Source: Minicystis rosea (GTDB taxonomy: Bacteria > Myxococcota_A > Polyangia > Polyangiales > Polyangiaceae). Taken from it: a stretch of 64,000 nt of DNA. The notes under the pieces were generated by a model. The model saw only the letters and a program-made list of their open reading frames with translations, did not search any database and had not been told where the DNA came from. A program made the position numbers and the translations under genes. This document shows, piece after piece, positions 1,938 to 62,770 of this stretch. Where the stretch lies: assembly GCA_001931535.1 (NCBI GenBank), contig CP016211.1:4375573-4439572 (forward strand). Reading direction: 5' to 3'. The number at the start of each line of letters is the position of its first letter. Position 1 is the first letter of the stretch.

Positions 1938-1951
1938 GTGCAGGTTCGAGC

Positions 1952-4044: not shown

Positions 4045-4046
4045 GG

Positions 4047-5120: not shown

Positions 5121-5205
5121 GGTCCCGTCCCTGGTGCGCCCGGATCGCGGGCACACGTTGGCTGTGCGCGGTCAGGCCGCGCGCTCGGGCGGCGCGACGG
5201 CCGCG

Positions 5206-22834: not shown

Positions 22835-23078
22835 TCGCCGACGCGCAGTAACGCATCGTCGATGCGCGACACCGCATTCACGCGTCGCTGGCGCCTTTCG
22901 TATGCGCGTGTCGCGGAGCCGCGTTCGCAGCGCGCACACACCGCACGGAAAAACACGCGGTGAGCATGCCTTTTCCAAGGCACGCGCCTTGCGATGCCCG
23001 GAGCGCTCCTGCCGGCGCGGCGCGAATTCGTGCCTCCGCCGCCCGAGGAGCGCCTCGTTCTCGACCGGGAGACAACCC

Positions 23079-24047
23079 ATGAACGCTGACTCGATCCGAC
23101 TCGCAGCCATCGGTCTCTTGTGCGCATCGCTCGGCGCCTGTGGAGGACACGCCGAGCCTTACGTCCCCTCCTGCTCGATCGACACCGACTGCGGAGACGA
23201 CACCGACCCGTGCGTCGCGCACGTGTGTCGCTCGGGAGAGTGCGAGATGGAGAGTCGGCTCGGGACCCGCGCCTGCGAGTGCCGCACCGCCACCGACTGT
23301 GATCAGACCGAGGCCACGCCCTGCTTCGTGATCTCGTGCGCGGCGAACCAATGTGTCTCTGCGCTCGCCGCCGCCGGGCCGGCCCCCGTTCAGACCCAAG
23401 GGGACTGCGCCACGTTCCTTTGCGACGGACAGACGCGAATGCCGATGCTCACCCAAGACCTCACCGACGTTCCGCCCGACGAGCCCTGCGGCAAAGGCAT
23501 GTGCACCGCCGCGGGGCCATCCATCGAATACGATCCCGATGGCACGAGCTGCTCCGGCGACGCGGGCTTCTGCTTCCAGCATGCTTGCGTCACGGGCTGC
23601 GTCCCGCAAAACGCCTCTGCCTGCGGTGGTGAAGGCCCGAACGAGCCGGTGAACGACGACTCCACCACACCGGCCTCGTTCACGGCCCCAAACGCTTGTG
23701 GGATGCTCGATGACTCCGATGTCGACTGGTACACCTTCTACGCGAAGGACGAGGACTTCCAGACAGACATTCTCCACTTCGACGCCTGGTCCACCGCGCC
23801 GACGATCGAGCTTTGCGCCTATGCGCGTTGCACCGATGGCTCGCTCCCGAGCGGCGGCGGCTGCGAGGCCGACCTCGACGGCCCGAACGGCAGCAAAGGC
23901 TGTTGTTGGACGGGCGCCTCTCAAGGCTTCTCGAAGACGTGGGATCTCGAGTGCACGACGAGCGACGATAGCGGTGACATCTACGTCTCGATCCGCTCCA
24001 CCACCGCGGGCGCGTGCGCGGTTTACGCAGTGAGCATGTCATACTGA
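23079..24047 (+). CDS. Cys-rich secreted lipoprotein (hypothetical)
   Basis: Signal peptide plus lipobox (LAAIGLLCASLGACGG); about 36 Cys in 322 aa; ATG at 23079. Confidence 0.5.
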   Translation: MNADSIRLAAIGLLCASLGACGGHAEPYVPSCSIDTDCGDDTDPCVAHVCRSGECEMESRLGTRACECRTATDCDQTEATPCFVISCAANQCVSALAAAGPAPVQTQGDCATFLCDGQTRMPMLTQDLTDVPPDEPCGKGMCTAAGPSIEYDPDGTSCSGDAGFCFQHACVTGCVPQNASACGGEGPNEPVNDDSTTPASFTAPNACGMLDDSDVDWYTFYAKDEDFQTDILHFDAWSTAPTIELCAYARCTDGSLPSGGGCEADLDGPNGSKGCCWTGASQGFSKTWDLECTTSDDSGDIYVSIRSTTAGACAVYAVSMSY

Positions 24048-24334
24048 TTCACGCCCGGAGCGCGCCCTCTTGCACGCGCGTGTTTGCAGGGGCTCCCCAG
24101 CGCGCCGCGGCATCGGGTGTCGTCCCGAGCCGAGCGGCGCAAGATTGGTGCGATTTCGAACCAACGGGCGGTTGTTCCGCGCCGTCGCGGCACCGCTCCG
24201 CGGCCGTCCGCACGAGGAACGTGAGGCGCGTGACGAGCCGAGCTTGCAACGCGTGAGTCATCGCGACTACGCTGAACCGTAGCCCGAGGCCTACGGGGTG
24301 GCCTCAGCATCCCGCTACGCACCTGGGCATCTCC

Positions 24335-24928
24335 ATGGAAACGCCTAAAATCAAGGGTGCCGGCTTCGTCGAGATCCTGAAATGGTACGCGACGACCCCT
24401 CAAGGGCCGGCGCGGCTCAAGCGCGCCGTGCAAAAGCTCCCACCGGATCTCAGAGGGTACATCACCCGTCCGGACGAGCCCACGCTCGGGGTCCTGGCCG
24501 GCACTTGGTATCCGGCCCCGCTCGTGGGCCACGTCTTCGGGGAGATGACGAGCGATCTCTCCCCGCTCGCGGTGCGCCAGCTCGCCATCGACGCGGTGAA
24601 GGCCAGCGTGGGCACGACGCTCAACGGTCTCTACGCCGGCATCTTCCGCATGCTGGTCAGCCCCAAGATGCTGGCCAACAACTACAATCGACTCTGGCGC
24701 CTCTATCACAACACGGGTGAGTTCGAGGTCATCATAGAATCGCCAACGCGCTTCGATTTCCGATTGTCGAAGTGGCCCGTCCACGACTCTTTCTTTTGCC
24801 AGATGAACCTCCAAGCGACCAAGCTCATCCTCGAGATGCTCGGGATGAAGGAGGTCATGGGGCAGCTCACCGCCTGCGTCGACCGAGGGGACGCGCATTG
24901 CTCGTACCTCCAAATGTGGAAGGGATGA
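24335..24928 (+). CDS. hypothetical protein, DUF2378/TIGR02265-like (Myxococcales paralogous family)
   Basis: Size and composition fit this family; the call rests on recalled similarity only. Confidence 0.4.
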   Translation: METPKIKGAGFVEILKWYATTPQGPARLKRAVQKLPPDLRGYITRPDEPTLGVLAGTWYPAPLVGHVFGEMTSDLSPLAVRQLAIDAVKASVGTTLNGLYAGIFRMLVSPKMLANNYNRLWRLYHNTGEFEVIIESPTRFDFRLSKWPVHDSFFCQMNLQATKLILEMLGMKEVMGQLTACVDRGDAHCSYLQMWKG

Positions 24929-27452: not shown

Positions 27453-29009
27453 ATGGTCGCGGCCATGGGTGCATCCGCGAACGAGCTCAAGGGCCCCGAC
27501 CTCGAGGTCGGCATCGACATCCAACAGCTCCGAGAAGGCGAGCCGCTGCTCGGACATGCGGGCGGCGAGGGCGTCGTCCTCGTCAAGCGCGGGGAGACGT
27601 GCTTCGCGGTGGGCGCGACCTGCCCGCACTATTCCGGGCCGCTTGGTGAAGGGCTCGTCGTGGGCGACACCATTCGCTGCCCGTGGCACCACGCACGCTT
27701 CGATCTCGCGAGCGGCGCATCGCTCGGCGGGCCGGCGCTCAATGCCATCCCGTGCTTCGACGTCGCGCGCGAAGGGCCGCTCGTTCGCGTCCTCGGCAAG
27801 CGCGCGGCAGCCCCGGCGAAGCGGCCGCCGCGCGCACCCGCGAGCGTGGTGATCCTCGGCTCGGGCGCGGCGGGCACCGTCGTCGCGGAGACGCTGCGCG
27901 CCGAAGGTTACGAAGGGCCCATCACGCTCGTCGGCGAAGAGGGCATTCCCATCGATCGTCCCAACCTCTCCAAGGATTACTTGGCCGGGACGGCGCCGGA
28001 AGAATGGATGCCCATCCGCGACGAGCAAGCGCTCCGCAGCAAAGGCATCGATCTCGTCGGGGCGCGCGCCACGCGCATCGATCCCGAGAGCAAGCGTGTC
28101 GCGCTCGAAGGCAAAGACGATCTCGCCTATGGCACGCTCGTGCTCGCCACCGGAGCCTCGCCCATTCGGCTCTCGATCCCGGGCGCCGATCTCCCGCACG
28201 TGCACATGGTCCGCACGCTCGCCGACAGCCGCGGCATCATCGCGGCCTTGGGCACGGCCAAGCGCGCGGTGGTGATCGGCGGCGGCTTCATCGGCCTCGA
28301 GGTCGCCGGCTCGCTGCGCGCGCGCGGCCTCGAAGTGACCGTCCTTCTGCGCGAGACGGTGCCGCTCGCGCGCGTGCTCGGCGACGAGCTCGGCAAGCTC
28401 GTCGAGTCCATCCACGTCGAGCACGGCGTCACCTTCGTGCGCGACACGCCGGCCGTCATCGACGCGACGGGCGTGACGCTCACCGGCGGACAGCGGCTCG
28501 AAGCAGACCTCGTGATCATGGGCGTCGGCGTGCGCCCCCGCGTGGAGCTGGCCCAAGCCGCGGGGATCCGCGTCGACAACGGCATCGTCGTCGACGATCG
28601 CCTGCGCACGAGCGCGCCCGATGTTTTGGCGGTCGGCGACGTCGCGCGCTTCCCGTGGGGCCCCGAAGGCACGCTGGTGCGCGTCGAGCATCTGGTCCAC
28701 GCCGAGCGCATGGGCTTCGTGGCCGCGCGCAACGCGCTCGGCTACGACGAGGCCTTCCGATTCGCTCCGTTCTTCTGGAGCCAGCATTACGACGTGCCGA
28801 TCAACTACGCAGGCACCGGCGCCTGGGACGAGGTCGAGATCATCGGCGACCCCGCGAAGCGCGATGTCCTCGCCGTCTATCGATCGCGCGGCCGCGCCGT
28901 GGCGCTGGCCTCGATCTACCGCGATTTGGAGAGCCTGCGCTTCGAGGACCTGCTCGAGCGCGGCGATGACGCCGGCATCGAAGCCATGTTGAAGGCCGCG
29001 CGCGGCTGA
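27453..29009 (+). CDS. Rieske [2Fe-2S] domain fused to FAD/NAD(P)-dependent ferredoxin-reductase-like oxidoreductase
   Basis: Rieske ligand boxes CPHYSGPL and CPWHHARF; dinucleotide-binding folds VVILGSGAAG and VVIGGGFIGLE. Confidence 0.8.
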   Translation: MVAAMGASANELKGPDLEVGIDIQQLREGEPLLGHAGGEGVVLVKRGETCFAVGATCPHYSGPLGEGLVVGDTIRCPWHHARFDLASGASLGGPALNAIPCFDVAREGPLVRVLGKRAAAPAKRPPRAPASVVILGSGAAGTVVAETLRAEGYEGPITLVGEEGIPIDRPNLSKDYLAGTAPEEWMPIRDEQALRSKGIDLVGARATRIDPESKRVALEGKDDLAYGTLVLATGASPIRLSIPGADLPHVHMVRTLADSRGIIAALGTAKRAVVIGGGFIGLEVAGSLRARGLEVTVLLRETVPLARVLGDELGKLVESIHVEHGVTFVRDTPAVIDATGVTLTGGQRLEADLVIMGVGVRPRVELAQAAGIRVDNGIVVDDRLRTSAPDVLAVGDVARFPWGPEGTLVRVEHLVHAERMGFVAARNALGYDEAFRFAPFFWSQHYDVPINYAGTGAWDEVEIIGDPAKRDVLAVYRSRGRAVALASIYRDLESLRFEDLLERGDDAGIEAMLKAARG

Positions 29010-32175: not shown

Positions 32176-32838
32176 AACGCTTCGGTCTGCGGGATGGTCC
32201 AGGGCTCGGCGATGGCCGCGGCCTCCCAGGCACGAAATGCCGGGTCGGCGAAGATGGCGTCGGCATAGGCCTGCGATGCGGGGCGCATCGGAACACCATA
32301 GGTGCGGAGACGCGTGGCGACGGGCGCATAGAAGGCATCGGCGATGGTGCGCGCGCCGAACAAGAAGGGACCACCCGCGCCGTAGCGCTCGCGCGTGTCA
32401 GCCCACAGCGCCTCGATGCGCGCGAGATCGGCCTGCGTGTCGTCGGGCCAGGCGCGCGGCGTGGTGCGGCGGCGGATGTTCATCGAGAGGTCACGGCGAA
32501 CCGCGCCGAAGCTCGAATGCATTTCGCAAGTCACGGCGCGGCAAATGGCACGCGTGCGCGGATCCTCGGGCCAGAGGTGAGCCGAAGGCGCGGCCTCCGC
32601 AGCCCATTCGGCGATGGCGAGCGAGTCCCAGATGGTGATGCCGTCGACCTCGAGCGCAGGGACGCGCCCGCTCGGCGAGACGGCGACCACTTCGGGGATC
32701 TGCGCTTTCCCATAACCGGGGCCGCCGAGCGGAATCACCCGCTCTTCGAAGGGAATGCCCGCCCAGGTGAGCACGAGCCACGGGCGCAGCGACCACGATG
32801 AATAGTTCTTGTTACCGATGTAGAGAACGGCGCTCATG
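32172..32838 (-). CDS. glutathione S-transferase
   Basis: ATG at 32838 (MSAVLYIGNKNYSSWSLRPW); thioredoxin-like N-domain with SxWS motif plus a helical C-domain. The upstream part of ORF ..33152 is a Arg-rich artefact. Confidence 0.75.
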
Positions 32839-33063
32839 CGCGCGAGGATAGTGCCTCGAACCGCGGGGCGCTCCCTCGATCGTGGCGCGGTGGATTCCGC
32901 CTGCGAGGTGGTCGCGATGCGCGACGGCGTACCGCGGCGGGCGCGTGGAGCCTCGCGTTCGTCGGATCCTCGCGCGGCGGGGCTTCTGGCCGTGCGTGTC
33001 CCGTGCCACCATGCGCCGGCTCGAACCCTTTCCCTTCCGCTTCCTGCGATCCGGATTCGAATC

Positions 33064-36000
33064 ATGACGAAGCTGACCGCCGCACTCCATGCCCTTTTCC
33101 TCGTCGCCGCGACGAGCTTCCTCGCCGCGTGCGGGCGCTCCGAAGTCGACATCTCCGTCGGTGGCTCATCGGCGACGAGCTGTCAGACGAACGCCGACTG
33201 CGCATCGACACCGGCCACGCCGCTGTGCCTGATACCACCCGGGCAGTGCGTCGCATGCTTGACCTCGCCGGACACGTGCCCGGCCGGCGAGACCTGCGAC
33301 GCCCAAACGCACACCTGCGTGCCGACCACGACGGGCTGTCAGAGCGACGCGGACTGCTCCGCGCCGACGCCGCACTGCCGGCTCGACACACACGTCTGCG
33401 TCGAGTGCACGAGCAACGAGCAGTGCCCCGGCGACGAGCAGTGCGCGAGCTTCCAATGCGTCGGCTTCTGCGGTGACGGATCGGCCTGCACCAACGGCAA
33501 GACCTGCTGCTCGCCGCTCTGCGTGGACGCGTCGAGCGATCCCGAGAACTGCGGCGGCTGCGGCATCAAGTGCGGGCCGTTCCCGCAGGCGTCGGGCTCG
33601 TGCTCGGGCGCGACGTGCACCGTCGGCCAATGCTTCCCCGGCTTCGCCAACTGCAACGGCCTCCTCAGCGACGGATGCGAGGTCGACACGGCCACCGATG
33701 CCACGAACTGCGGTGGATGCGGCATCACCTGCAAGCCCGATGAAACGTGCTCGGGCGGGACCTGCGCCGGGTCCTGCGGCGCCGTGGGCTCGTGCACGCC
33801 CACTCAAACGTGCTGCGGGACGCAGTGCGCGAACACGCAGAGCGATCCGCTGAACTGCGGGACCTGCGGCAACACTTGCACCGCGGTTCCGCAGGGCAAC
33901 ACCGCGTGCGTCTCGAGCGCGTGCCAGATCATCAACTGCGCGGCGGGCTTCGCCGACTGCAACGGCAAGATCATCGACGGCTGCGAAGCCGCCACCGACA
34001 AGGATCCCAACAACTGCGGCACCTGCGGGACGGTGTGCGCCGCGGGCTCCGTCTGCGTCGCGGGCACGTGCCAGTCCACGACCTGCAAGACCACGGGCTG
34101 CCCCGTGGGGCTCGCGTGCTGCGGTGTCGCCTGCACCGATACCAACAACGATCTCGGCAACTGCGGCGGCTGCGGCAACGCCTGCCCGCCGAACGCCACG
34201 GCGTGCATGGGCGGCGGCTGCTGCTTCCCGCAGCCCGGCGGCGGCGTCATCTGCTCCAGCGTGGTGTGCACGCCGCCGCTGCAGAACTGCGGCGGGACCT
34301 GCGTCGATCAGGGCACGGATCCCAGCAACTGCGGCGGCTGCGGCATCAAGTGCGGGCCCACCGAAACGTGCGTGAACGGCACGTGCACGGGCACGATCAC
34401 GTGCAACGGCGGCCCGGCGTGCGCGCCCACGCAGGCGTGCTGCGCGAGCGGGTGCGCGAGCACGGACACCGATCCGAAGAACTGCGGCAAGTGCGGCATC
34501 GTCTGCCCGGCCGGCAACAACTGCGTCGGCGGCTCCTGCCAGGCGACGTGCAACGGCGGGCCCACGTGCTCACCGACGCAGCAGTGCTGCTCGACCGGAT
34601 GCGCCAACACGGGCTCGGATCCGAACAACTGCGGCGGCTGCGGCATCGTTTGCCCGGCGGACACCACCTGCGTCAACGGCGCCTGCCAAGGCACGTGCAA
34701 CGGCGGACCGATGTGCGGCGCCGGACAGACCTGCTGCCCGAGCGGGTGCGCCAACACGACCAGCGACGTGAAGAATTGCGGCGGCTGCGGCATCGTCTGC
34801 GGCGACGAGCAGACCTGCAACAACGGCATGTGCACGACGCCCATGCAATGCAACGGCGGCCCGGCGTGCGGCGCCGGGCAGACCTGCTGCCCGACGGGCT
34901 GCGCGGATCTCAACAACGATCCCAACCACTGCGGCGGCTGCGCCACCGTGTGCGGGCCGACCGCGTCGTGCATCAATGGCTCGTGCGCGACCAACGAGGG
35001 CGCCTTCAATCCGATCGTGAATCCGACGTTCCTCGCGCCGGGCGTCCACAACTTCACGACGATCAACATCCCGGCGGGCGTCACCGTCTTCGTGGCCGGG
35101 CCGGGGCCGGCGTCGGGCACGCTCGATCTGCGCGCCACGGGCGCGATCGTCATCGACGGGACCATCGATCTCTCGGGCGGGCCCGGCACCCAAAACACCA
35201 TCACCTCGATGAGCACGCAGTCCGGCCGCGCCGGGAGCGGCGGTTACACGGGTGAGCCCTATCAATCGGCCACGCCTTCTTCAGCGTGCCAGTTCATCGC
35301 CGGCAACCCGGGTCAGCTCGGGTTCCAACTCCAGGGCACGCCGGGCACCTGCACCATCCTGTCGACGAGCATCTGCGTCTCGCAAATGGATCCGGCTGCG
35401 CTGGTGTTCACGGCGCCTCCGGCGATGTTCGGCGGCGGCGCAGGCGTGTTCACGGGCTTCCGTGGTTATGGCAGCGGCGGCGGCGGCCCGGCCGGCGGCG
35501 CGCCCGGCGCAATCGGGCCTGCCTTCGGCGGGCAACAGAACTGCTCGGGCGCTTCCGGCGGCGGCGGCGCCGTCGCGGGCAAGGGCGGCAATGCCGGCAA
35601 TGCCACCTACAATGGCAAGGACGGTGTGCTCGGACAGACGCAGTGCCAAGGCGTGATGGGCTTCCCGCCGGCCTACGTCGGCGGCGGCGGCGGCGGCAGC
35701 ATCGGTACACAAGCCGCCCTGGACCGCGCGGTGCTCACCACCTTCCAGACCGGCTCCGGCGGCGGCGGCGGCAGCGCCGATTACCTCAATCGTCCGGTGT
35801 TCGGCGGCACCTCGGGCGGCGGCGGCGGCGGCGGCGCGCTCAAGCTGTCCACGCCCGCGAGCATCACCATCAAGGGTCAGCTTCTCGCCAACGGCGGTGT
35901 GGGCGGCGATGCCTTCATCGGCAATGGCGCCGCGGCCGGCTGCGATCCGCAGCCCGGCGCGGCGGGTGGCGGTGGATCGGGCGGTGTGATCTACCTGTCG

Positions 36001-36237
36001 GCGCCGAGCGTCTCGGTGAGCAATGGTGCCGTCATCTCGGCGGCCGGGGGCGCTGGTGGCTTCGGCAGCTTGTTCGCGAGCGGCGGCGGCGGTGGCGCCG
36101 GTGGCCTCGGTCGGATCCGACTCTCGGTGTCGCCGGCGACGTGCTCGCTGAGCGGGACGTTCAAGCCGCCGCTCCAGGCTGGATGCGGGACGGCGAATGC
36201 GGCTGGGTTTGCATACGTGGGGACGTATCCGAATTGA
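33064..36237 (+). CDS. giant extracellular Cys-rich repeat lipoprotein (more than 20 DPxNCGxCGxxC repeats) with a Gly-rich C-terminal region
   Basis: ATG at 33064 and lipobox LAAC. Repeats such as SDPENCGGCGIKCG, TDPSNCGGCGIKCG and SDPNNCGGCGIVCP. The last ~350 aa are Gly-rich (GGGGGG runs). Confidence 0.75.
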   Translation: MTKLTAALHALFLVAATSFLAACGRSEVDISVGGSSATSCQTNADCASTPATPLCLIPPGQCVACLTSPDTCPAGETCDAQTHTCVPTTTGCQSDADCSAPTPHCRLDTHVCVECTSNEQCPGDEQCASFQCVGFCGDGSACTNGKTCCSPLCVDASSDPENCGGCGIKCGPFPQASGSCSGATCTVGQCFPGFANCNGLLSDGCEVDTATDATNCGGCGITCKPDETCSGGTCAGSCGAVGSCTPTQTCCGTQCANTQSDPLNCGTCGNTCTAVPQGNTACVSSACQIINCAAGFADCNGKIIDGCEAATDKDPNNCGTCGTVCAAGSVCVAGTCQSTTCKTTGCPVGLACCGVACTDTNNDLGNCGGCGNACPPNATACMGGGCCFPQPGGGVICSSVVCTPPLQNCGGTCVDQGTDPSNCGGCGIKCGPTETCVNGTCTGTITCNGGPACAPTQACCASGCASTDTDPKNCGKCGIVCPAGNNCVGGSCQATCNGGPTCSPTQQCCSTGCANTGSDPNNCGGCGIVCPADTTCVNGACQGTCNGGPMCGAGQTCCPSGCANTTSDVKNCGGCGIVCGDEQTCNNGMCTTPMQCNGGPACGAGQTCCPTGCADLNNDPNHCGGCATVCGPTASCINGSCATNEGAFNPIVNPTFLAPGVHNFTTINIPAGVTVFVAGPGPASGTLDLRATGAIVIDGTIDLSGGPGTQNTITSMSTQSGRAGSGGYTGEPYQSATPSSACQFIAGNPGQLGFQLQGTPGTCTILSTSICVSQMDPAALVFTAPPAMFGGGAGVFTGFRGYGSGGGGPAGGAPGAIGPAFGGQQNCSGASGGGGAVAGKGGNAGNATYNGKDGVLGQTQCQGVMGFPPAYVGGGGGGSIGTQAALDRAVLTTFQTGSGGGGGSADYLNRPVFGGTSGGGGGGGALKLSTPASITIKGQLLANGGVGGDAFIGNGAAAGCDPQPGAAGGGGSGGVIYLSAPSVSVSNGAVISAAGGAGGFGSLFASGGGGGAGGLGRIRLSVSPATCSLSGTFKPPLQAGCGTANAAGFAYVGTYPN

Positions 36238-36245
36238 GGGTGGGG

Positions 36246-36279
36246 TCAACCTGGGTGGGGTGAGCCCCACCCAGGTTGA
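36246..36279 (+). terminator. perfect 15-bp stem / 4-nt loop hairpin immediately after the stop codon of the giant Cys-rich gene
   Basis: tcaacctgggtgggg-tgag-ccccacccaggttga; GC-rich with no T-tract, so also compatible with a REP-like hairpin. Confidence 0.4.
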
Positions 36280-36440
36280 GGTTGAGCCCCGCGCAGATTG
36301 AAAAGGCAGCTGAGCCCCACCCGGGTTGAGCTGAGCCTCACCCAGGTTGACCCCACAGCCTGCTTCTTTCTCAGCCCACCCAGGTTGAGCTTTCCTCACC
36401 CAGGTTGAGCCCACCCCTGTACAGCTCGTTCAGGGGTGAG
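36267..36440. repeat. array of 5 direct repeats (C/T)CACCC(A/G)GGTTGA(G/C)C plus a second hairpin (cacccctg...caggggtg)
   Basis: Copies at about 36267, 36318, 36338, 36376 and 36396; the core AGGTTGAGC is shared with the 37277-37410 array. Confidence 0.6.
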
Positions 36441-36489
36441 GCAGCTTCAGCTCGACCTGATGGCGCGGTTGCGCCGCCTGCGCCAGCGC

Positions 36490-37203
36490 TCACACCATCG
36501 CTCTCCGCCCTGGTTGGATATCCAGCGACAGCTCGCCTCGCCGGAGAGCCTCCCAGGTTGCCTCCGGTGTGGCCGGTTGCCGAGCACACCACTCGAGATA
36601 CGCGAAGAACGTGATGTCAGGATCCCGCGCCTCCTCATCCGAGACATCAAAGCGCCCTTCGATGGCACGCTCCACCGCTGCCAACAGATTCTCGTGATAG
36701 CGCTCGTACACCGTCAGGTCCCGAAGCCACCGGAAGCGGGCAGTGTCGTGAGCGACCACCTCTGCCGCAGCGTCGCGCACCCGCTCCAGCCAACCCGGGT
36801 AGCACCGGAGCATCTGAAGATCGTAAGCAAACTGATTGCCATCGTGATGCGCGGCCAGGAGATGCTTGAGCACCCGCTCCGGAGAGCTCGCGAGCCCAGA
36901 CGCGTCCAGCGGAGCGATGGCTTGCTCCCAAACGAGAAACGGAAACCGCATCGGTCGATGACGTAGAAGCCGTGCCCGCAACGTCGGACGAACCGGGTGC
37001 TCCACACAGGTCCCGATCGTCTCGGATCGGAAGAGGATGCGCTGCCACATCCGCACGACGCCGAGAAAGATCTGCCAGAGATTGGGACACGGCTCCACCA
37101 GCGCCGCGGCCCGCACCCGCTCGAGGCCGCGATGGACCCGCTCAGGCTCGACCAGGATCAACCTCGCGAACCAGGGTAACGCGCGAACCTCGTCGGTCGT
37201 CAT
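36490..37203 (-). CDS. hypothetical protein flanked by AGGTTGAGC repeat arrays
   Basis: 237 aa; ATG at 37203; no recognisable domain. Confidence 0.45.
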   Translation of the reverse strand: MTTDEVRALPWFARLILVEPERVHRGLERVRAAALVEPCPNLWQIFLGVVRMWQRILFRSETIGTCVEHPVRPTLRARLLRHRPMRFPFLVWEQAIAPLDASGLASSPERVLKHLLAAHHDGNQFAYDLQMLRCYPGWLERVRDAAAEVVAHDTARFRWLRDLTVYERYHENLLAAVERAIEGRFDVSDEEARDPDITFFAYLEWCARQPATPEATWEALRRGELSLDIQPGRRAMV

Positions 37204-37276
37204 ATGCCACTTTTACCGGCCGGGGCCCGCGTTGGACAGGAGTGTTTTAACCGACGCCCTCAAAGCCCTCAGCCCC

Positions 37277-37410
37277 GACCGAGGTTGAGCCCAGCTAGAA
37301 ACCTCGATCGAGGTTGAGCCCAGCTCCCAGCTCACCGGAGCTCCCAACTCATCGGCGAGCCAGAAGCAGCGTGGCCCATCCTGACGCCTCGACCGAGGTT
37401 GAGCTGAGCT
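37277..37410. repeat. 3 direct repeats GA(C/T)CGAGGTTGAGC(C/T)(C/G)AGCT
   Basis: Copies at 37277-96, 37306-25 and 37391-410, between the hypothetical gene and the RAYT-like gene. Confidence 0.6.
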
Positions 37411-37710
37411 GAGCTGGAGCTGCGCCCAACATCCGATGCAAGGCATGCCCGCCGCACAGGGCCGCCGCTCGCTTCGCGACAAACCTTCGCCGTGCATCAT
37501 CCCATATGTCGTGAGGTGGCCGGTCTGACAGAGCGCCTCCTCCATCGACGATGCCATTCATCTCGACCCAGGTGACGCGGCCGCAGCCATCCACCGAAGA
37601 CCATCAGCGCATATCGCTCAAGAGCATCAGAGCACGCAACACCCCCGCAATTGACTTCACCAAACAATCCCTATCGCAACATCCCCCATCGCGACTGGCT
37701 CAAACATCGA

Positions 37711-38664
37711 TCAGCCTACGATACAAGTCGGCAGCAACCCACCAGCAGAACAGCTCGACGGTTCAGCCACGTCGGCGCCGTGAAACACCCGCATCCACCA
37801 TGTTCCGCTCGGGAATGCGACACTACGGAGGCCTGCGCGCCATCGCTCGATTGCAGCTCGATACGACATGCGAAACGAGCGAACGGCTTCCACGGCTCGG
37901 TGCCATGCACCCCCTTGCTCACGCCCAACGGCGAACGTGGGGTTGCGATCTCGCGCGGGCTCGAAGCTCGAAATGCGATCTTGTGGCGAGATCTTCCTCA
38001 CTCGCTCCGGCCCCAGAAAACGAAGCCCCTTTCGTCGCATCTCTGCATGCGCCTCCTGCTCGAGTCGCTCGACCTCGGCGGCAACTTCAGCCCGAAATGG
38101 ATCGGCCCCGCTTCGCTCGATCGAGGGAGGCAGCAGGATGGGCAGGGACACCTCCGCCGGCCATTGAGGATTGCTTGGATCGAAGTAGGTTTGAGGCCGG
38201 CTCGCGCGCAGCACCCCAGTCCCCACCTCGCTCGAGCCGACCATCGCGCCGGGCCACTCGCGCGCATGTCTGACGAGGCCTGCAGCTACGGGGTTTGCGA
38301 GAACATAAGCGATCTTCTCCACAATCGCAGCCCGTGTCAGCAGCCTGACGACGCTCGTGGCCTCATGGTCCCATACCGGCCCTTCCCATCGGCGGAGCAG
38401 CTTTGTACCGAGCGCCACCAAGCGATGAAAGAACTGCAAGAAACGTGGAAGAAGCCCATGCACGTCGGTCACCACGAGATGCAGGTGCGTCGACATCGCG
38501 CAAAATGCGTGCACCTGGAGACCCAATCGATGCGCCGACACCGCAAGCGCATAGGTCAAGAGCTGATTGATGCGCGCGTCGGGTCGGAAGAGGAGATGTC
38601 GACGCAACGTACGTCGGGTAATGAGGTAAGTCGCTCCGAGAACGACCTCGCGAGGTTGGCTCAT
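37711..38664 (-). mobile_element. IS200/IS605-family HuH Y1 transposase, long REP-associated (RAYT)-like form
   Basis: HuH motif MSTHLHLVV and catalytic-Tyr motif IAYVLANPVAAGLV (Y-x3-NPV-AGLV). 318 aa from ATG 38664; TTG 38694 is possible. Repeats flank it on both sides, and the sequence is locally AT-richer. Confidence 0.65.
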
Positions 38665-38779
38665 GCCCGAATGTATCTTCAAATATCGAGCCAAAGACTG
38701 AATCGAGCAATATCAACAGCTTGGGCAACCACGTAGGGCCTCGAAGCCCGCCAGCCCGCCAATTTCCGCCAGCCATTCA

Positions 38780-38841
38780 CGCCAACGTGGGTCGGTCCAG
38801 CCACCCAATCCGCCAACGTGGGTTGGCCCAACCCATTGACA
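38780..38841. repeat. 2 x ~31-bp tandem repeat CGCCAACGTGGGTYGG..CC, the second copy palindromic (gggttgg-c-ccaaccc)
   Basis: Read directly upstream of the RAYT-like gene. Confidence 0.5.
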
Positions 38842-38951
38842 AATCCCCGAAATCCCCGCCATAACCTCCCCCTCCTCATGACTGCCCCCCGCCCAGCCGC
38901 GAGCAACTCATCCACGCGCTCTACGAAGCTGCCGAGCTCGAGCACAACCTC

Positions 38952-40474
38952 ATGTGCACGTACCTCTACGCAGCCTTCAGCCTCCGCAGCGGTGAGGAGG
39001 ATGGCCTTTCCCCTCACGAAGCCGCCGCCGTCGCGCGCTGGCGCCGTGAAATCATCGATATCGCCATCCAGGAGATGGGCCACCTCACGGCGGTATGGAA
39101 CATCACCGCCGCGCTCGGCGGCTCACCGAGGTTCGGCCGCGGCAACTTCCCCCTCGACCCGGGGGCCCTGCCTGCCGGCGTGGTGGTGAAGCTCGCCCCC
39201 TTCAGCGACGCCGTCCTCCAGCACTTCATCCACCTCGAGCGCCCCGAAGGCTCTTCCGAGCCCGACGGAGAGGGCTTTGCCCCCGAGTTCACCTATCAGC
39301 GCGGTTCGCATACTCCCCGCATCACCCCCATGCCCACCGATTACGACACGGTCGGTGCCTTTTACGCCTCGCTCGGCGCCTCTCTCCGCGCCTTCGTGGA
39401 GCACGTCGGTGAGGCCACGGCCTTCTGCGGTGATCCGGCCCTGCAACTTTCGCCCACGGAGGTCGCGCTCGCGGGCGCCAAACCCGTCATCTGTTTGAAG
39501 ACCTCGCTCGCCGCCTTCACCACCATCGTCGAGCAGGGCGAGGGCGCGCCGCTCCAATCGCGGGATTCGCACTATCAGAAATTCCTCGCCATCCGCACCG
39601 AGCTCGCGGAGCTCCAGGCGGCGAATCCGAGCTTTTCGCCGGCGTTTCCGGCCGCGCACAATCCCGTGCTCCGTCCGCCGGTGCGCCGCGAAGGGCGTGT
39701 TTGGCTGGAGAACGAGGAGGCCGCCGCCGCCGTCGATCTCGCCAACACGGGATATGCGCTCATGCTCCGGCTGATGGCGTATTCGTACACCGTGCCTCGG
39801 CCCACGGCCGAAAAGACGCTCTCCGTCGATCTCGCGCTCGGCCTCATGCGCGCCGTCACCTACCTCGCAGAGCGCGCGGTGCGTTTGCCCGCGGGCCCGT
39901 CGAATCCCGGTTGCAATGCGGGGATGTCGTTCTCCGCCCTGCGGGACGCAGCGCCGTTGCCCATGGGCCCGAGCGCGCGGCGCTTCTTCACCGAGCGGTT
40001 CGACGAGATGGTGCGGGCCGCAACCATCCTCGACGCGTCCGGCGATCGGCGGGTGAACACCGCGACACGCATCCTCACCGATCTCGCCAGGCGCGCGCAC
40101 CGCGGCTTCGACGCCGCGACGGCAGCGCAGGCCGCGGCGCCCGCCCCCGCTCCGGCTGTGCGCCCGACGACCGCGACGGCTGTGGCAGCGGCGGCCGCCG
40201 GCCCGGAGGCGCTTCCGGGCACCCCGCCGACGCCCGTCACCATCAATGGTGTCGATCACATCGAGGGCAAGAAGCTCACGCTGCTGTACGAAGGCAAGAA
40301 GTGCATTCACGCGCGCTTCTGTGTCACCGGCGCGCCGAAGGTGTTCATCGCCAACGTCCAAGGCCCGTGGATTCACCCCGACGCCGTGGATGTCGAAGCG
40401 CTCGTGGAGATCGCGCACATCTGCCCGTCCGGTGCGATTCGCTATCAGCGCAAGGACGGCAAGAGCGATGAAGG
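38952..40474 (+). CDS. ferritin-like domain + divergent 4Fe-4S mono-cluster domain protein (frame-0 segment of an apparently frameshifted gene)
   Basis: PF12902-like N-terminus ...EQLIHALYEAAELEHNLMCTYLYAAFSL...EMGHLTAVWNITAALGG. C-terminal GKKCIHARFCVTGAP...HICPSGAIRYQRKDG. No in-frame start exists upstream of 38952, although homology continues; ATG 38878 (MTAP) is in the +1 frame before a C6 run. Confidence 0.55.
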
Positions 40475-40879
40475 CCCCCGCCCGTCAACCTCATCGCCGT
40501 CCGCGAGGCAGGCCCGTATGCCGTGCGCGGAGACATCCAGCTCGACGGCGAATCCATCAACTATCGAGCCACGCTGTGCCGCTGCGGCGCCTCGAAGAAC
40601 AAGCCTTATTGCGACGGCTCCCATCACGAGGTCGGATTCGCTGCCTCCGGCGAGCCGCCCTCGGGAAAGACGGACATGCTGGCGGTCCGCAATGGCCCGC
40701 TCGCCATCGACCCGCAGGTCGACGGCCCCCTGCACGTGCGGGGGAACCTCGAGATCACGAGCGGCACGGGGCGCGTCGTCACCCGCGTCCAGGAAGCGCG
40801 CCTCTGCCGCTGCGGCGGCAGCAGCACCAAGCCCTTCTGCGACGGCACCCACGCTCGCATCGGATTCAAATCCGTTTGA
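40472..40879 (+). CDS. CDGSH iron-sulfur domain segment (frame +2 continuation of the ferritin-like gene)
   Basis: Two CDGSH motifs, CRCGASKNKPYCDGSH and CRCGGSSTKPFCDGTH. The frame opens at 40472 (RPPPVNLIAVREAGPYAVRGDIQL) immediately after a C5 run, where the frame-0 ORF loses homology. Confidence 0.6.
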   Translation, partial: RPPPVNLIAVREAGPYAVRGDIQLDGESINYRATLCRCGASKNKPYCDGSHHEVGFAASGEPPSGKTDMLAVRNGPLAIDPQVDGPLHVRGNLEITSGTGRVVTRVQEARLCRCGGSSTKPFCDGTHARIGFKSV

Positions 40880-40892
40880 GCATGCGAGCGCG

Positions 40893-40925
40893 CGCGAGCC
40901 GGATGACCGACGACTGCGGACATCC
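40893..40925 (+). terminator. 9-bp stem hairpin (agccggatg...catccggct) between convergent genes
   Basis: Read directly; no T-tract. Confidence 0.3.
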
Positions 40926-40957
40926 GGCTCGCAAACGCTTCTTCGATCTCGTGGCAA

Positions 40958-42601
40958 TCAAGGCGTCGCGAGCTTGAGGACGATCGAGCGCCCGCTACGC
41001 TCGATGCTCCCCACCAGCCGATCGGGGATCGTGGCACCCGTGATGTTGAGGTGCTCCCGCTTCAACAGCGCGGGCAGGGACAGCTCGACGCGTGCGGGCC
41101 CGATGTCGTGCAGTTGAATCGCCGCAGGGAGCAGGTGCGGATCGTCGACGACGACGACCACGAAGCGCCCTTCGGCCTGAAGCAGCCGCGCGGATTGATG
41201 ACCGATGGCCGTCACGCCCCCGAGCTTGAGCTTATGTGGGGCACTGCACGGCGTCTTCTCGGCCAGGGCACACTCGGCGGCTGCCCGTGAGGTCTTTTCG
41301 GGCAGCACCCCGAAGAACAGATGCCCCTCCGAAAGCGACACGCTCCCGAAGCGCGCGAACGTCGCGCTCCCCTTCGGGCGATCTCCCAACATGCGCAGCC
41401 GCTGCGAAAGCCTGATTCGAGGCACCTCGCTGACGAGCCAAGGCAATGCCACCAAGTACCCGGACCAACCCGCTTCGCGCACCCGATTCACGAGCATCGA
41501 CCCACCCTCGCGGCGCGGCTGATCCCCCGGAAATCCCCAAGCTTGCGAAAACGCCTCCGCGATGTCGACCGAGGCCGATGCGCCCGGCACCGTCATCGAC
41601 TTCGACGGGAGCCAAACCTCGTCCGGAGGCATGGGAAACGCAGCGCCGGTGTCGACGGTGAGGGTGATATCCATCTTCCCCGCGGCTTCGCCCGCGGACA
41701 CGTCGACGGTATCGAAGTAATTGCCTTTGGCCGAGCCCGCGAGCACGTGAGAGCGCGCCGATTCCCACATGCCTTGTGCGGCCAAGAGCCCGCGTTGATC
41801 GGGTGTGATCGGGGCGCCTTCGAGGGCCGCGACGGTGGTGGCGACGCCGTGCAAGAACCCGAGATCGGCGACGCCTGCCGGTGAATAGCGCACCCGCAGG
41901 GCACGTCCCGAGAGCGCCGGCGCCTCCCCACGTCCATCGCTCGTGGAGAGCTCGCGAAGCGCGGCGCGGCCTTGTTTTCCAATGGCCATGTCGACGACCA
42001 CGCCATCACCGTTCACACGCGTCACCACGTGTCGTTGTCCGTGCGTCCATGCGCTGCCATCGCTGCGAAAACCGAGCTCCTCCAGGGCTTTGACGATCAT
42101 GCGATGAAGCGCCTCCGCATCCCTGGCCGGCACGAGCGCGCGCAGCGCCACCGTGGGCGGCTCTCCGGCCACGGCGTCTCGCACCTGCTGCACTTGATCC
42201 GCAGTGAGCGGCTGGGACGAGTCCCCCGGATTGTTCGCCGGGATCAGCGGCCGGAGGGCCTCGATCGTGCGGCGCGCGGCAGGCGATGCGCCGGCGAGCG
42301 CGAACGTGATGGGACGCGAAGGATCGAGGACGGGCGTGAATCGCGCGAGCAAGCTCATCACTCCATCCATCGGGAGCTCGAGCACCTTCATGGGCGCGAG
42401 CCGCGCGAATACGCCGGTATCGATGCTTCCCGAAAGGACCGCTCCGCTCGGCAGCCCCACGACGGCGGGCGCAGGCGGCGGAGGCGGGGGCAGGCCCTCA
42501 CTCGCCGTGGCAATGGCAATCGAGGGTGGAGGCGGAGACGATCCGCCACATCCAACCATGGAGATGCCGAGCGCGAGCCATGCCATTCGACGAAAACGCA
42601 T
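40958..42601 (-). CDS. hypothetical lipoprotein
   Basis: ATG at 42601 (MRFRRMAWLALGISMVGCGG lipobox) followed by a Pro-rich linker; the N-terminal part of ORF ..42781 is discarded. Confidence 0.5.
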   Translation of the reverse strand: MRFRRMAWLALGISMVGCGGSSPPPPSIAIATASEGLPPPPPPAPAVVGLPSGAVLSGSIDTGVFARLAPMKVLELPMDGVMSLLARFTPVLDPSRPITFALAGASPAARRTIEALRPLIPANNPGDSSQPLTADQVQQVRDAVAGEPPTVALRALVPARDAEALHRMIVKALEELGFRSDGSAWTHGQRHVVTRVNGDGVVVDMAIGKQGRAALRELSTSDGRGEAPALSGRALRVRYSPAGVADLGFLHGVATTVAALEGAPITPDQRGLLAAQGMWESARSHVLAGSAKGNYFDTVDVSAGEAAGKMDITLTVDTGAAFPMPPDEVWLPSKSMTVPGASASVDIAEAFSQAWGFPGDQPRREGGSMLVNRVREAGWSGYLVALPWLVSEVPRIRLSQRLRMLGDRPKGSATFARFGSVSLSEGHLFFGVLPEKTSRAAAECALAEKTPCSAPHKLKLGGVTAIGHQSARLLQAEGRFVVVVVDDPHLLPAAIQLHDIGPARVELSLPALLKREHLNITGATIPDRLVGSIERSGRSIVLKLATP

Positions 42602-42815
42602 GCCTCGTTCTAGCCTCATCATCCCGAAATCCGCCAGGAATTTGGGCCGTGCGCAGCGCGACGAACGCGGCTCCGTCGCCACCGAGAGCGGCGCCGACAT
42701 TCGGCCGTGCACAGCCGAGCTTCGGGATGGACACGCAAGGTCCGATGCTCGAGAAGCGCGCTTGCCGCTCCGCACGAGCAAGCGTACCGCGGAGCTTCAC
42801 CTCAACATCGGAGTC

Positions 42816-43925
42816 ATGCTCATGAAGCTTCCTGTCTCCCTCACTGCGCTCGCCTTCCTCGCCATGGGCTGCGCCGGCACCGATCTCGGAACCGCGACGG
42901 AGAGTGTCACCTCCGACGACACAGCCGTCTTCGCCGTTCGCGCCGACACCAACACCTGTGCATTCCCTGCCTGCGGCGGCTACTACGTCTCACGCGTCAA
43001 TCGCACCACGACCACCTGTGCCGACGGCACCGACGCGGCCGAGTGCTACGTCGCCGAGCTCGACTTCTCCTCGGTCGGCCTCACGACCCAACAAGAGACG
43101 GATTTGCGCGCTTCGGTGACGACCTCGGCGCTCACGGTCTCTTCGCTCTTCCGCGGCAAGATCTTGAAGAGGAAGTTCGGCACGGCAGGCACGTTCGGCC
43201 GGCTCGCCATCACCGTGCCCTTCGTGTCCCCTGCGCCCGTGACGCTCGACAGCATGGTTTACAAGATGTCGACCATCGGCGGCAATTGCACCAACGAGAC
43301 CTGTCCGACGATCCGCGAGGTCGAGCTCAACACCAGCGTTGGCCGCCTCGTCTCCCACCTCGATCTCACCGGCACGCCCGGCACTGCCACCCAGAAGAAC
43401 GAGGCGCTCGTCGCTGCCTATTCGACGGATTCGATGCTCACCCTGGGCACGCAGGTCGGCGGCTCGACCGATCGTGTCTTCACCGCGACGAGCTATTTCA
43501 CGCCGGTGGATCCGGGCGAAACACTGTGCGGCACCGATTTCACCGACGAGCTCTCGGCGGTGACCGACGGCTTCCTTTGGATGAGCGAGTCGGACTATCC
43601 CGTCGATCCCGTGATGTTCCCCGGCGAAGGCTCGGCCGCGCCCACCGCGGAGCAAGTCCGCGCGCTCGTCGGCTTGCCCGCGGGCACATCCGTGGACGAG
43701 CGCTCGATGGTCGTCTTCCAGTGGGCCGGACGCAACGATCTCGGCATGGCCCCCGAAGAGACCGCGCTCGCCATGCGCTATCGTGCTCTGCGCAAGGTCC
43801 TCGAGCACAACCTGACCGATCTTCGTTTCTACTATTACGGCACCATCCAAGTGCAGGTCTACATCGTGGGCCGCACACGCTGTGGTGATCTCGCGGGCAT
43901 GCACACCGTCTCCATCGAGACCTGA
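42816..43925 (+). CDS. hypothetical lipoprotein
   Basis: ATG at 42816 after GGAG; lipobox LAFLAMGCAG; 369 aa. Confidence 0.5.
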   Translation: MLMKLPVSLTALAFLAMGCAGTDLGTATESVTSDDTAVFAVRADTNTCAFPACGGYYVSRVNRTTTTCADGTDAAECYVAELDFSSVGLTTQQETDLRASVTTSALTVSSLFRGKILKRKFGTAGTFGRLAITVPFVSPAPVTLDSMVYKMSTIGGNCTNETCPTIREVELNTSVGRLVSHLDLTGTPGTATQKNEALVAAYSTDSMLTLGTQVGGSTDRVFTATSYFTPVDPGETLCGTDFTDELSAVTDGFLWMSESDYPVDPVMFPGEGSAAPTAEQVRALVGLPAGTSVDERSMVVFQWAGRNDLGMAPEETALAMRYRALRKVLEHNLTDLRFYYYGTIQVQVYIVGRTRCGDLAGMHTVSIET

Positions 43926-48154: not shown

Positions 48155-48174
48155 GCTCGGCAGGGGGGAAGAAC

Positions 48175-51024: not shown

Positions 51025-51044
51025 CGGACGATCGCGGGGGGATC

Positions 51045-53473: not shown

Positions 53474-53589
53474 TCGTTGTGCGCCTGGACCGAACACCGC
53501 TCCTGGCGCGTGAGGTTGTAATCGGTATTATTGGCAATGTTGGCCTGACTCGTCATTTCGGGAGAGCCAAGGGCCGGGCGGGGGGCGCC

Positions 53590-56500
53590 ATGGTCGACCT
53601 CGGTGAACGACAGACCCTGGTGGTCATCGGCAATGGCATGACCAGCCACGCGCTCTGCCGCAGGCTCGCGGAGTGCGGGGTCACACGCGGTGAGCTCGAG
53701 GTCGTGGTCTTCGGCGAAGAGCCGCGGCCCGCGTACGATCGCGTGCACCTCACGGATCTCCTCGGCGGCAAGACCGAGGCCGATCTCTCGCTTGCCCCGC
53801 GCTCCTGGTACGAAGATCGCGCCATCACGCTCCACCTCGGCGATCCCGTGGTGGAGATCGATCGCGACGAGTGCCTCGTGCGCTCCGCGTCCGGCGCCAC
53901 CGTGCTCTTCGATCGGCTCGTCTTCGCTACGGGATCACGGCCGTTCATCCCGCCCATCCCGGGCGTCGATCTGCCGGGCGTCTTCGTCTATCGCACCGTC
54001 ACCGATCTCCACGCCATCCTCGCGCATGCGTCGTCCGCCAAGCGCGCCGCGGTGATCGGCGGCGGCCTGCTCGGGTTGGAGGCCGCGCGCGCGGTGCACG
54101 CCCTGGGGCTCGAGGTGCACATCATCGAGGCCCATCCAGGGCTGATGTCGCGCCAACTCGACGCCACGGGCGCGCGCCTCCTCGGCGAGCGCGTCGAGAC
54201 GCTCGGCGTGCGCGTGAAGACGGGCGCGCGCACCGCGCGCATCGACGCCGGCAAGTCCGCGAGCGCCGCCTCCAAGCGGATCCTCCGTTTCGAAGACGGC
54301 TCCACACTCGAGGTCGATCTCGTGATCTTCGCCGCCGGCGTTCGCCCTCGCACCGAGCTCGGCGTCGCCTGCGGGCTCCTCACGGCGCCGAGCGGCGGGC
54401 TCCTCGTCGACGATCGCCTCACCACCTCCGATCCACGCATCTTCGCGGTCGGCGAGTGCGCCACGCATCGAGGCATCACCTATGGCCTGGCCGCGCCCGG
54501 CTATCAGATGGTCGACGTGCTCGTGAACAACATCGGCGGCGGGGACGCCACGTTCACGGGCGCGAGCCAGTCGACCCGCTTGAAGCTGCTCGGCGTGCAC
54601 GTCGCCTCGCTCGGTCGGCCCGATGAAAAGAGCACGCCGGGCGCGACCACGCATACGTACCTCGCCGGGGGCGCCTATCGAAAGCTGGTGATCGCCGATG
54701 GCCACATCATCGGTGCCATCGCGATCGGTGAATGGGAAGATCTGGTGCGCATCGAGGACGCGCTCGCCGAGCCGCGCCGCGTCTCGTTCTGGGATCTGCG
54801 CCGCTTTCGCAGCACGGGCAGCCTCTTTCTCAAATCGGAGTCGCCGCCCGTGCACGAGTGGCCGGCGGAAGCGCTCGTGTGCGGCTGCCTCGGCGTGCGG
54901 CGCGGCGCGCTCAGCGATGCGGAGATCAAAGGCTGCTCCACCGTCGAAGCCATGTCGGCCCACACCGGCGCTGGCACCATGTGCGGCTCCTGCAAACCGC
55001 TCCTCGCGGATTACCTCCGTCGCGAGCGCGCCGATTCTCTCCCTGCCTCTCAGCTCCTGCGGCTCGCCCCGCCGCGCGTGCCGACCTTCGACGGCGTCGC
55101 TCCTTCGAGCAAGGCGCGCCCCGCCTCGGCCGCGCCCCTGCCTTCCAAGCCCACCCCCGCGCCCATCCCTGCGGCGCCCACGCCGCCGAGCACAGCCGGC
55201 GTCGCCGCGCCCAAAGGACGCAAGAGCTCGAATGCACCCTCGCGCAAAGCGCGTCACAACTCGGGAGCTCCGTCGCGCCAGGCAAAGGCCCTATCGAACA
55301 TTCCGCCGCGCCGAACGACGGCCCCTTCGCAAGCTCCGCTTCCTGCACCCAAGGACAAGACCCTTTCCGTTGCTCCCCTGCCCAAAGCGAAGACCAGCTC
55401 GGCGCCTCCGAGCACGGCGCGGTCCGAGCCGACCGCCGCGCCTCGCAATGCACCTTCGCACGCGGCCTCTCCGGCGAGCGTGGCAAAGCCCCCTGCGGTC
55501 GCGGCCCCGCGCGATGCAGAGCCCCTTTCGGTTGCACCTCCGAGCACCGCACGCTCCGAGCCCGCCGCGTCGTCCAACAAGGCTCGTCCCGTTGCCCCAC
55601 CGGCGCCGCGAATCGAGACCGCGGTTGCCCGACGCGAGGCCAAGCCTGACTCCGTAACTCCGCCCAGCACCGCTCGTCCGGGAGCGCCCCTTTGCTCGGC
55701 GCGCCGCGATTCCGCCGCTCCACCGAGCACCGCGCGTCCCGGCTCGGCTGCGCCGCGGTGCGCTTCATCCAACGAGCTTGTCGAGCAACGATGCTCGCTG
55801 CGCGCCGATTCGATTGTTCCTCCGTGCGCCGCCCATGTCGACGAAGTGAATCAACCCCGATCCACCCCCGCGGCGAGTGACGATCGCGGGGAGGACTCGC
55901 CGCCGACGCTGCGCTGCAATGACGAGGGGAATGGAGCCGTGATCGAGCCGGCCGCGCCTGAAGCGCCGACGTCCGATGATGAGGATCCTCTCTCGATTCC
56001 GGCGCTCGCACCGCCGCAGGCCGCGGAGCCCGCAAAGCCGCCCGCGCCTTCCCCGCCTCCACCACCGGACTCGACGCCCGGCGAAGGCCCTCTCTCCGTG
56101 CGCTCGCCGCGTGCCGGACGCGTGCGCCCGCGGCGTCGTCAGGCTTTCGATACGCTGCAGAGCACACCGCCCATCGGCGCGGTCACCGCGCGCGAGGCAG
56201 CGTCGATCCGCCTCGATGCGCCGTCCAAACGCACCCTCACCGCCGCGCTTCCATCCATCGCGGCCCATTTGAGCGCCGCCCGCGCCGAGCGTGCACCGAT
56301 CTCGGTCGCACCCGCGTCCACCATCTCGACACGACAAGAGTCCTCGACGCGGCTGCGACCTTCGATTGCAGAGCAGGGGCCCGTCTCGGAGGCGCAGCGC
56401 GCCAAAGCACCTTCGATCGTTCCACCGCCCAAACCACCTTCGCTCGTTCCACCACCCAAACCACCTTCGATCGTCCCACCGCCCAAACCACCTTCGATCA

Positions 56501-60976: not shown

Positions 60977-61145
60977 CGACGCGCACGGCCCCAACACCGC
61001 TTCGCTCGAGCACGCGACGTCCGACTCCCAAGCTCACGAGCATCGGAGTCGATTCAACACCTCGCCGCGACTCCACCTCTCGACACGCGCTCCATTCACC
61101 ATCACGGAGCTCGCCGCCCTCGCGGCGAGCCCGTCCCCTCTGCCG

Positions 61146-61667: not shown

Positions 61668-61794
61668 CGCGCGCACCATAACGCGACCGGGCTCTCCCTC
61701 GCGAGCCTCGAAGACCAACCCGACGCCGGCCAGGCAGTCCCGCAACCGCAGGTCAGGCACAGCATCCCAAACCAGCGGAAGGGGGATCTTACCC

Positions 61795-62754: not shown

Positions 62755-62770
62755 CGTGTAAAACGGCAGG

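Follow-up and report, generated by a model that had tools for sequence, protein, structure and literature searches.

Two single-base deficits at C runs interrupt a three-domain ferritin-like/Fe-S gene in the Minicystis rosea assembly and are most likely residual sequencing errors

The window analysed is a whole stretch of 64,000 nucleotides from contig CP016211.1 of Minicystis rosea, and has a GC content of 69.06%. Its forward strand hosts, between positions 38878 and 40879, a gene in which homology to known proteins is distributed over three reading frames; all the features of the gene described below lie on the same strand. The two switches between frames are both of the -1 type, as expected if one base is missing, and each could be narrowed to an interval of at most 12 nt, in which a run of C residues is the sole homopolymer. 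The first-pass annotation of the region had described one gene broken by two frameshifts, each at a poly-C run, and this is confirmed in every detail. A single uninterrupted ORF is not found in the deposited sequence, and is obtained only if one C is added to each run. The gene thus repaired spans 38878-40879 and encodes a 667-aa protein, colinear with its orthologues, in which a ferritin-like domain is followed by a Fer4_19 domain and two CDGSH modules. The coding GC3 signal tracks the homologous frames across the gene.

The first interruption is close to the 5' end. The ATG at 38878-38880 opens frame 1, which reads MTAPRPAASN..., and homology is gone after four codons. The homologous reading at this site is found in frame 0 (...PPSREQLIHALYEAAELEH... 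/ ...PPSREQLIHALYEAAELEHNLMCTYLY...), open from a TAA located at 38862. From this stop to the ATG at 38952 frame 0 contains no ATG, GTG or TTG codons, and ATG 38952 falls within the conserved first helix. Homology had been said to extend upstream of the only available start, and it does run 5' of ATG 38952 in frame 0. Similarly, the ATG of the MTAP reading is located in a shifted frame ahead of the C6 run at 38885-38890, frames and coordinates being as described. ATG 38878 is taken as the true start of the gene, and the M-T-A N-terminus is common to orthologues P0010, P0014 and P0019. The missing base falls between this ATG and the codons CCG CCC AGC (P-P-S), and the C6 run would have a true length of C7. 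A non-canonical start in frame 0, the ATC at 38910, has been considered and discarded, because the Arg-Glu of SREQL, invariant among the aligned orthologues, would be lost.

The second interruption is found between the Fer4_19 domain and the CDGSH modules. Frame 0 homology ends with ...RYQRKDGKSDEGP at about position 40478, and is followed by nonsense up to 41117. Frame 2 is open from the stop codon TGA at 40469-40471, reads PPPVNLIAVREAGPYAVRGD..., includes both CDGSH motifs, and ends at the TGA at 40877-40879. The switch from frame 0 to frame 2 homology falls therefore between the TGA at 40469-40471 and position 40481. The homopolymer is here a C5 run (40475-40479, presumed true length C6), and the base is missing within a conserved junction of the type D-E-x-P-P-P-V-N-L. 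A frame switch at this very run, leading into a double CDGSH domain, had been proposed from the start; it is substantiated, and the frame 2 stop sets its upstream bound. Sites 1 and 2 share an identical 9-mer (C CCC CGC CC) in identical phase, and the identical correction, one additional base, applies to both.

Three types of domain are recognized by Pfam in the repaired translation, all above gathering thresholds and in the order typical of the family, and the ferritin-like, 4Fe-4S mono-cluster and CDGSH content previously assigned to the gene is hence correct. The N-terminal helical ferritin-like domain extends from 38898 to 40136. Its PF12902 core, at 38922-39596, corresponds to residues 16-240 (E 1.8e-38, 133 bits vs a cut-off of 22.3). 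Fer4_19 (PF06902), a divergent 4Fe-4S mono-cluster domain, is encoded at 40260-40454 (residues 462-526, E 3.5e-16, 59.4 bits vs a cut-off of 24), and features Cys476, Cys482 and Cys516. The zf-CDGSH domain (PF09360) is found in two copies (E 3.6e-31, 107.6 bits vs a cut-off of 29.5), the corresponding 2Fe-2S motifs being CRCGASKNKPYCDGSH at 40577-40624 and CRCGGSSTKPFCDGTH at 40805-40852. Two ExxH motifs, ELEH (residues 20-23, 38934-38945) and EMGH (residues 66-69, 39072-39083), are invariant in 49 aligned orthologues. Putative metal ligands are kept throughout, as the protein retains both ExxH motifs, the three Fer4_19 cysteines and both C-x-C-x8-C-D-G-x-H signatures. A further match links residues 209-349 to positions 798-935 of the VioB profile TIGR04492 (E 9.4e-17). 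Identity to VioB has been rejected, the score (60 bits) being far under the 1250-bit cut-off and the match being restricted to a sub-domain; the likeness to the C-terminal region of VioB reflects a PF12902-type helical domain common to both.

The AlphaFold model of orthologue P0001 is all-helical over residues ~10-420 (pLDDT ~85-95). The model is poor for the C-terminal Fe-S modules, which is taken to reflect the absence of cofactors in the prediction. The best PDB match of the N-terminal domain model is 3HL1 (Foldseek E 3.6e-6, TM-score 0.67 on target), followed by Dps and ferritin folds with weak scores. 3HL1 is the uncharacterised ferritin-like protein CC_0557 of Caulobacter vibrioides, obtained in a structural genomics effort; in contrast to the protein described here, it is 289 aa long and has no Fe-S modules, and identity is limited to 19%. 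Solved relatives detectable by sequence are available for the CDGSH modules only, and include 3TBM (E 5.8e-10), 3TBO, 3TBN and mitoNEET. The first three are bacterial or archaeal stand-alone CDGSH modules of 60-87 aa, the motifs of which match those of the C-terminal tandem. The invariant ExxH motifs sit on the first two long helices in the aligned orthologues. Given that two such motifs occur together with one module of the [4Fe-4S] type and two of the [2Fe-2S] type, the protein is proposed to combine a metal-dependent oxidoreductase domain with an electron-transfer chain in the same polypeptide. The role in Fe/redox sensing envisaged in the first-pass annotation is a conjecture.

Relatives of the repaired protein are abundant. 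By searching 5.8 billion proteins, 3413 matches were found at E <=1e-10. The 120 best of these 3413 matches are all 640-726 aa long, carry all three Pfam domains in one chain, and cover 98-100% of the query. The first of them, P0001 (673 aa), is encoded by a Minicystis sp. MAG (GCA_047601355.1), and is 80% identical to the repaired protein at 100% coverage; a second M. rosea assembly is not represented in the protein collection. A scan of GTDB genomes identified 547 stretches encoding relatives. Eighty loci, the M. rosea locus not being among them, were kept; they are found in Polyangiaceae, other Myxococcota, Steroidobacteraceae, Burkholderiales (Roseateles, Pelomonas) and Hyphomonadaceae. 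All 81 genome loci cover the repaired protein in one piece, from residues ~1-8 to 664-667, and the ORF is unbroken between the junctions in the 53 loci in which both were found by motif search. Neither frameshift is present among the 120 listed proteins (of 3413) or the 81 genome loci.

Alignment of the three segments to intact orthologues had been recommended as a check; the segments are colinear end to end, and the PPSREQL and PPPVNL tracts are restored. At junction 1 the repaired MTAPPPSREQL agrees with the orthologue sequence (M)TA..PPSREQL, and at junction 2 the repaired DEGPPPVNLIAV (DEGPPPVNL) agrees with DE.(P/A)PPVNL. The pattern observed is not a matter of chance, given that intact orthologues can be aligned with the repaired product over its whole length, both junctions included. 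The intact protein had been regarded as an interesting fusion. This view is not sustained, as the PF12902+PF06902+PF09360 architecture is very common and already catalogued, and CDGSH has already been described in association with Fer4_19 as well as with ferritin-like domains (PMC5859297). The family is large, bacterial and catalogued, and the gene is one of its ordinary members.

In the deposited annotation, the interval 40523-40879 is a separate CDS, encoding a 118-aa 'hypothetical protein' (A7982_03771, APR78424.1), to which the C-terminal fragment corresponds by exact sequence match. Taken as it stands, the GenBank entry would imply two separate genes, one for a ferritin-like/Fer4_19 protein and one for an independent CDGSH protein, and stand-alone CDGSH proteins do exist. 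Homology extends, however, beyond GTG 40523 in its own frame, back to the stop at 40469. It continues also upstream of ATG 38952, and spans there the residues R, E and LYEAAELEH, all invariant among the aligned orthologues. It had been argued that orthologues organized as separate genes with their own starts would speak against the one-gene interpretation; the 120 listed proteins and the 81 loci are instead single-chain, each encoded by a single ORF. The annotated division is almost certainly wrong.

Constraint on the gene was monitored by aligning the repaired protein with 120 orthologues. The protein deviates at 1 of the 260 columns conserved at >=97%; when each of the 120 intact orthologues is left out in turn, deviations are 1 (median) to 8 (maximum). 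Judged from its sequence, the repaired gene shows no decay. One could still imagine a genuine, very recent pseudogene, resulting from replication slippage that deleted one C per run in the lineage of DSM 24000, perhaps while it was kept in the laboratory; such a gene would be dead, and substitutions would not yet have accumulated. C runs are real indel hot spots, and deletions within them are predicted by artefact and mutation alike. The junction codons are CCG CCG CCC, with C runs of <=4, in most of the 53 loci, and C6 is found at site 2 in only three. By comparison, the C runs of the M. rosea lineage would be unusually long at its two Pro-Pro-Pro sites, a circumstance favouring real slippage. 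Against this stand the lack of relaxed constraint just described (1/260 conserved columns), and the finding that the gene is intact in all the relatives examined. In addition, one would have to assume that the gene was hit by two independent inactivating indels before it received any damaging substitution, and a known technical error, occurring at a matching rate, is the more parsimonious explanation. A recent pseudogene appears on the whole unlikely, although both the lesions detectable in the window hit this one gene and leave the remainder intact.

The identity of context and phase at the two sites is a coincidence if the shifts are artefacts. In part it follows from the encoded peptide, Pro-Pro-Pro being specified at each site by GC-rich codons. 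The same 9-mer, occurring twice in the same phase, could alternatively hint at deletions that are real and bypassed in expression. Either tRNA-Pro would slip by -1 in the P site on C CCC, or RNA polymerase would stutter and add a C; by slipping at a polyproline stall site, CCC CGC would be read as CCC CCG CCC, and full-length protein would be produced to some extent. A -1 slip from CCC to CCC involves no mismatch and regenerates the conserved Pro-Pro-Pro, and downstream of site 2 there is a modest hairpin (z = -1.85, reached by 8 of 200 shuffles). Yet this hairpin is not significant given that four folds were tested, and no structure follows site 1 (z = -0.34). The heptamer X XXY YYZ is absent, and the A-site codon CGC cannot re-pair on CCG. 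The shift is absent from the 120 listed proteins (of 3413) and the 81 loci, and two serial events of low efficiency would give a negligible yield. As for transcription, insertions predominate in A and T runs, according to an excerpt of a published study (PMC5574713). Bypass of real deletions seems very improbable. Were the shifts nonetheless real, the common Pro-Pro-Pro/C-run context would make the gene a candidate for polyproline-linked frameshifting, in favour of which nothing has been found here. In such a scheme, two tRNA-Pro slips would tie the yield of the Fe-S protein to polyproline translation, through EF-P or tRNA-Pro modification; the odds of this are slimmer still.

C tracts located inside an ORF, one near the start and the other at a domain junction, are also reminiscent of phase-variable contingency loci, in which expression is turned ON or OFF by changes in tract length. 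Classical contingency tracts are longer than 5-7 nt. The tracts described here measure 5-6 nt, and orthologues have mostly C runs of <=4 at both sites. It would moreover be odd to find both tracts in the OFF state, and the benefit of such a switch for a cytoplasmic Fe-S protein is not evident. The chance that this is a contingency locus is slight.

The distribution of homopolymers in the window has been analyzed. The gene hosts 10 of the 64 C/G runs of at least 5 nt. Six runs have an inferred true length of at least 6, three being G6 runs at gene junctions, one being located in the PEPCK gene, and two corresponding to the frameshift sites. Of the three such runs in coding DNA, two are thus found in the gene under study; the third, at 8536, is intact, and the PEPCK gene hosting it gives full-length Pfam matches. 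Since the gene is rich in long C/G runs, the presence of two errors in it is unsurprising. The G6 runs at 48163, 51036 and 53580 were evaluated as further frameshifts and dismissed, being Shine-Dalgarno-like sequences located a few nt upstream of ATG starts. An indel in tracts of this sort would be invisible. C/G runs of at least 6 nt number 5 in the window vs 11.4 expected from high-GC comparator loci (Poisson P = 0.03), the comparators being heterogeneous. The deficit is weak evidence, compatible with homopolymer under-calling.

No other forced frameshift was detected by GC3 segmentation and Pfam completeness in the ~43 kb of coding sequence of the window. In the hidden Markov segmentation of GC3, site 2 is the sole internal switch on the same strand, and all others are ordinary stop/start boundaries. 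The segmentation mislabelled lower-GC3 genes as non-coding and assigned a Cys-rich repeat gene to the wrong strand, and was therefore backed by Pfam completeness. Every gene of the window with a Pfam match encodes a complete or near-complete domain. The regions called non-coding are mostly lower-GC3 coding DNA, and no forced frame switch was detected in them. The ORF at 27453-29009 encodes a Rieske/FAD reductase, 100% identical over its full length to the M. rosea 'Ferredoxin reductase'. No conserved operon was found around the gene, the best neighbour cluster occurring in only 16 of the 81 loci. Synteny of neighbours with the Minicystis MAG is absent, and a scan for sigma-70 promoters found nothing.

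The way in which the genome was obtained is relevant to the origin of the two deficits. According to an excerpt of the genome report, the M. rosea DSM 24000 genome measures 16,040,666 bp, with a GC content of 69.07%, and was sequenced with PacBio P6C4 chemistry (RS II, three SMRT cells, 217x), and assembled with HGAP (SMRT v2.3.0) and Quiver; short-read polishing is not mentioned in the excerpt (PMC8436480). For Streptomyces albus SM254 (73.3% GC), P6-C4 reads at 262x were assembled with HGAP3, and the consensus, although repeatedly polished with Quiver to QV >50, still contained 205 indels, nearly all in G/C homopolymers, or ~1 per 35 kb (PMC4832174). At this rate, 1.83 indels are expected per 64 kb vs the 2 observed, and the probability of finding at least two is 0.55. 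It should be said that Quiver usually calls runs of 6-7 correctly at 217x coverage.

Assembly error is favoured by three circumstances: only PacBio data went into the assembly, each lesion is the loss of one base from a C run, and the number of lesions fits the published error rate. Both frameshifts are most likely, with a probability of about 0.8, residual PacBio consensus errors of the DSM 24000 assembly. The deposited consensus would under-call one C per run, a true C7 being reported as C6 at 38885-38890 and a true C6 as C5 at 40475-40479. The chromosome would contain the bases missing from the assembly, and the gene would most probably consist there of an uninterrupted ORF of 667 codons, with ATG 38878 as its start. 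Three alternatives had been offered in the first-pass annotation. Of these, the first, an error of sequencing or assembly, has the strongest support, and recent pseudogenization and programmed slippage are less likely.

The finding amounts to an annotation correction and to a warning on the M. rosea assembly, and not to new biology. In the deposited annotation, an ordinary Fe-S/ferritin-like protein of 667 aa is broken up into pieces, APR78424.1 included. At the rate published for the pipeline, the 16-Mb genome may harbour ~460 indels of this kind.

The closest technical parallel is the S. albus SM254 assembly, which has chemistry, assembler and polisher in common with that of M. rosea, and similar coverage and GC content. 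The two cases differ in that Illumina reads served to demonstrate and correct the S. albus errors, whereas the run errors of M. rosea are inferred. Programmed -1 frameshifts of the dnaX or IS3 type feature a heptamer, a stimulatory structure and conservation in orthologues; in the locus described here the heptamer and the conservation are missing, and no significant structure follows either site. The protein in turn finds its counterparts in the three-domain orthologues, which number in the thousands, measure 650-700 aa, and have the same domain order and length as the repaired product. All these are encoded by single uninterrupted ORFs, from which the copy in the window differs by the lack of one base at each of two C runs.

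The gene encoding the ferritin-like, Fer4_19 and double CDGSH protein (38878-40879, +) is preceded by a 23-nt direct repeat, CGCCAACGTGGGTyGGyCCArCC, found in two copies (38780-38802 and 38811-38833) at a spacing of 31 bp. Downstream of the repeat are located TTGACA (38836-38841) and, at 38860-38865, CATAAC, whose 3' end is about 12 nt upstream of the ATG at 38878. No Shine-Dalgarno sequence is found ahead of this ATG. As judged from the sequence, the repeat and the TTGACA/CATAAC pair could be a candidate operator and promoter, directing the synthesis of a nearly leaderless mRNA. The pair (38836-38865) was not picked up by a consensus promoter scan.

The product of the divergent ORF located upstream (37711-38694, -) resembles, by its sequence, REP-associated tyrosine transposases (RayT). 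Its match to NF047646 has an E value of 6e-13 and, at 48.9 bits, falls short of the cut-off of 80 bits. No Pfam domain is matched at 1e-3. The ORF lies in a stretch, about 37.3-38.9 kb, where the codon-position GC signal is weak.

GC at third codon positions (GC3) is clearly reduced, 0.7-0.85 vs about 0.93 elsewhere, in several kilobase-scale stretches (22820-24480, 35240-38880, 40880-43020, 54930-56650, 60740-62770). Their products mostly lack Pfam matches, as is the case for the 607-aa ORF at 40958-42781 (-), and the genes may be recently acquired or fast-evolving. At 61940-62240 the GC-richest codon phase changes locally, inside the open 395-aa ORF 61146-62333 (-), where no stop forces a frameshift; the change may be one of composition or may mark a further indel. 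The 1133-aa ORF at 32836-36237 (+) encodes a large Cys-rich protein with four STIG1-like repeats (CGGxC...DPxNCGG). The antisense frame of this ORF imitates a coding GC3 pattern and has two in-frame stops, giving the false look of a minus-strand pseudogene.

Four adjoining genes on one strand (195-5156, -), encoding a MenD-like TPP enzyme, a chorismate-binding enzyme, a UbiE/COQ5 methyltransferase and a polyprenyl synthetase, look like a quinone biosynthesis cluster.

Three of the five 6-nt C/G runs in the window are G6 tracts located a few nt 5' of an ATG (48163-48168, ATG 48175; 51036-51041, ATG 51046; 53580-53585, ATG 53590), and probably serve as Shine-Dalgarno-like sequences. A wrong run length at these three tracts would escape notice. 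In GenBank, the CDGSH tail (40523-40879, +) is a separate 118-aa 'hypothetical protein' (A7982_03771, APR78424.1). Extrapolating from the error rate published for the same PacBio P6-C4/HGAP/Quiver pipeline in Streptomyces albus SM254 (PMC4832174), the 16-Mb genome may host about 460 indels of the same sort.
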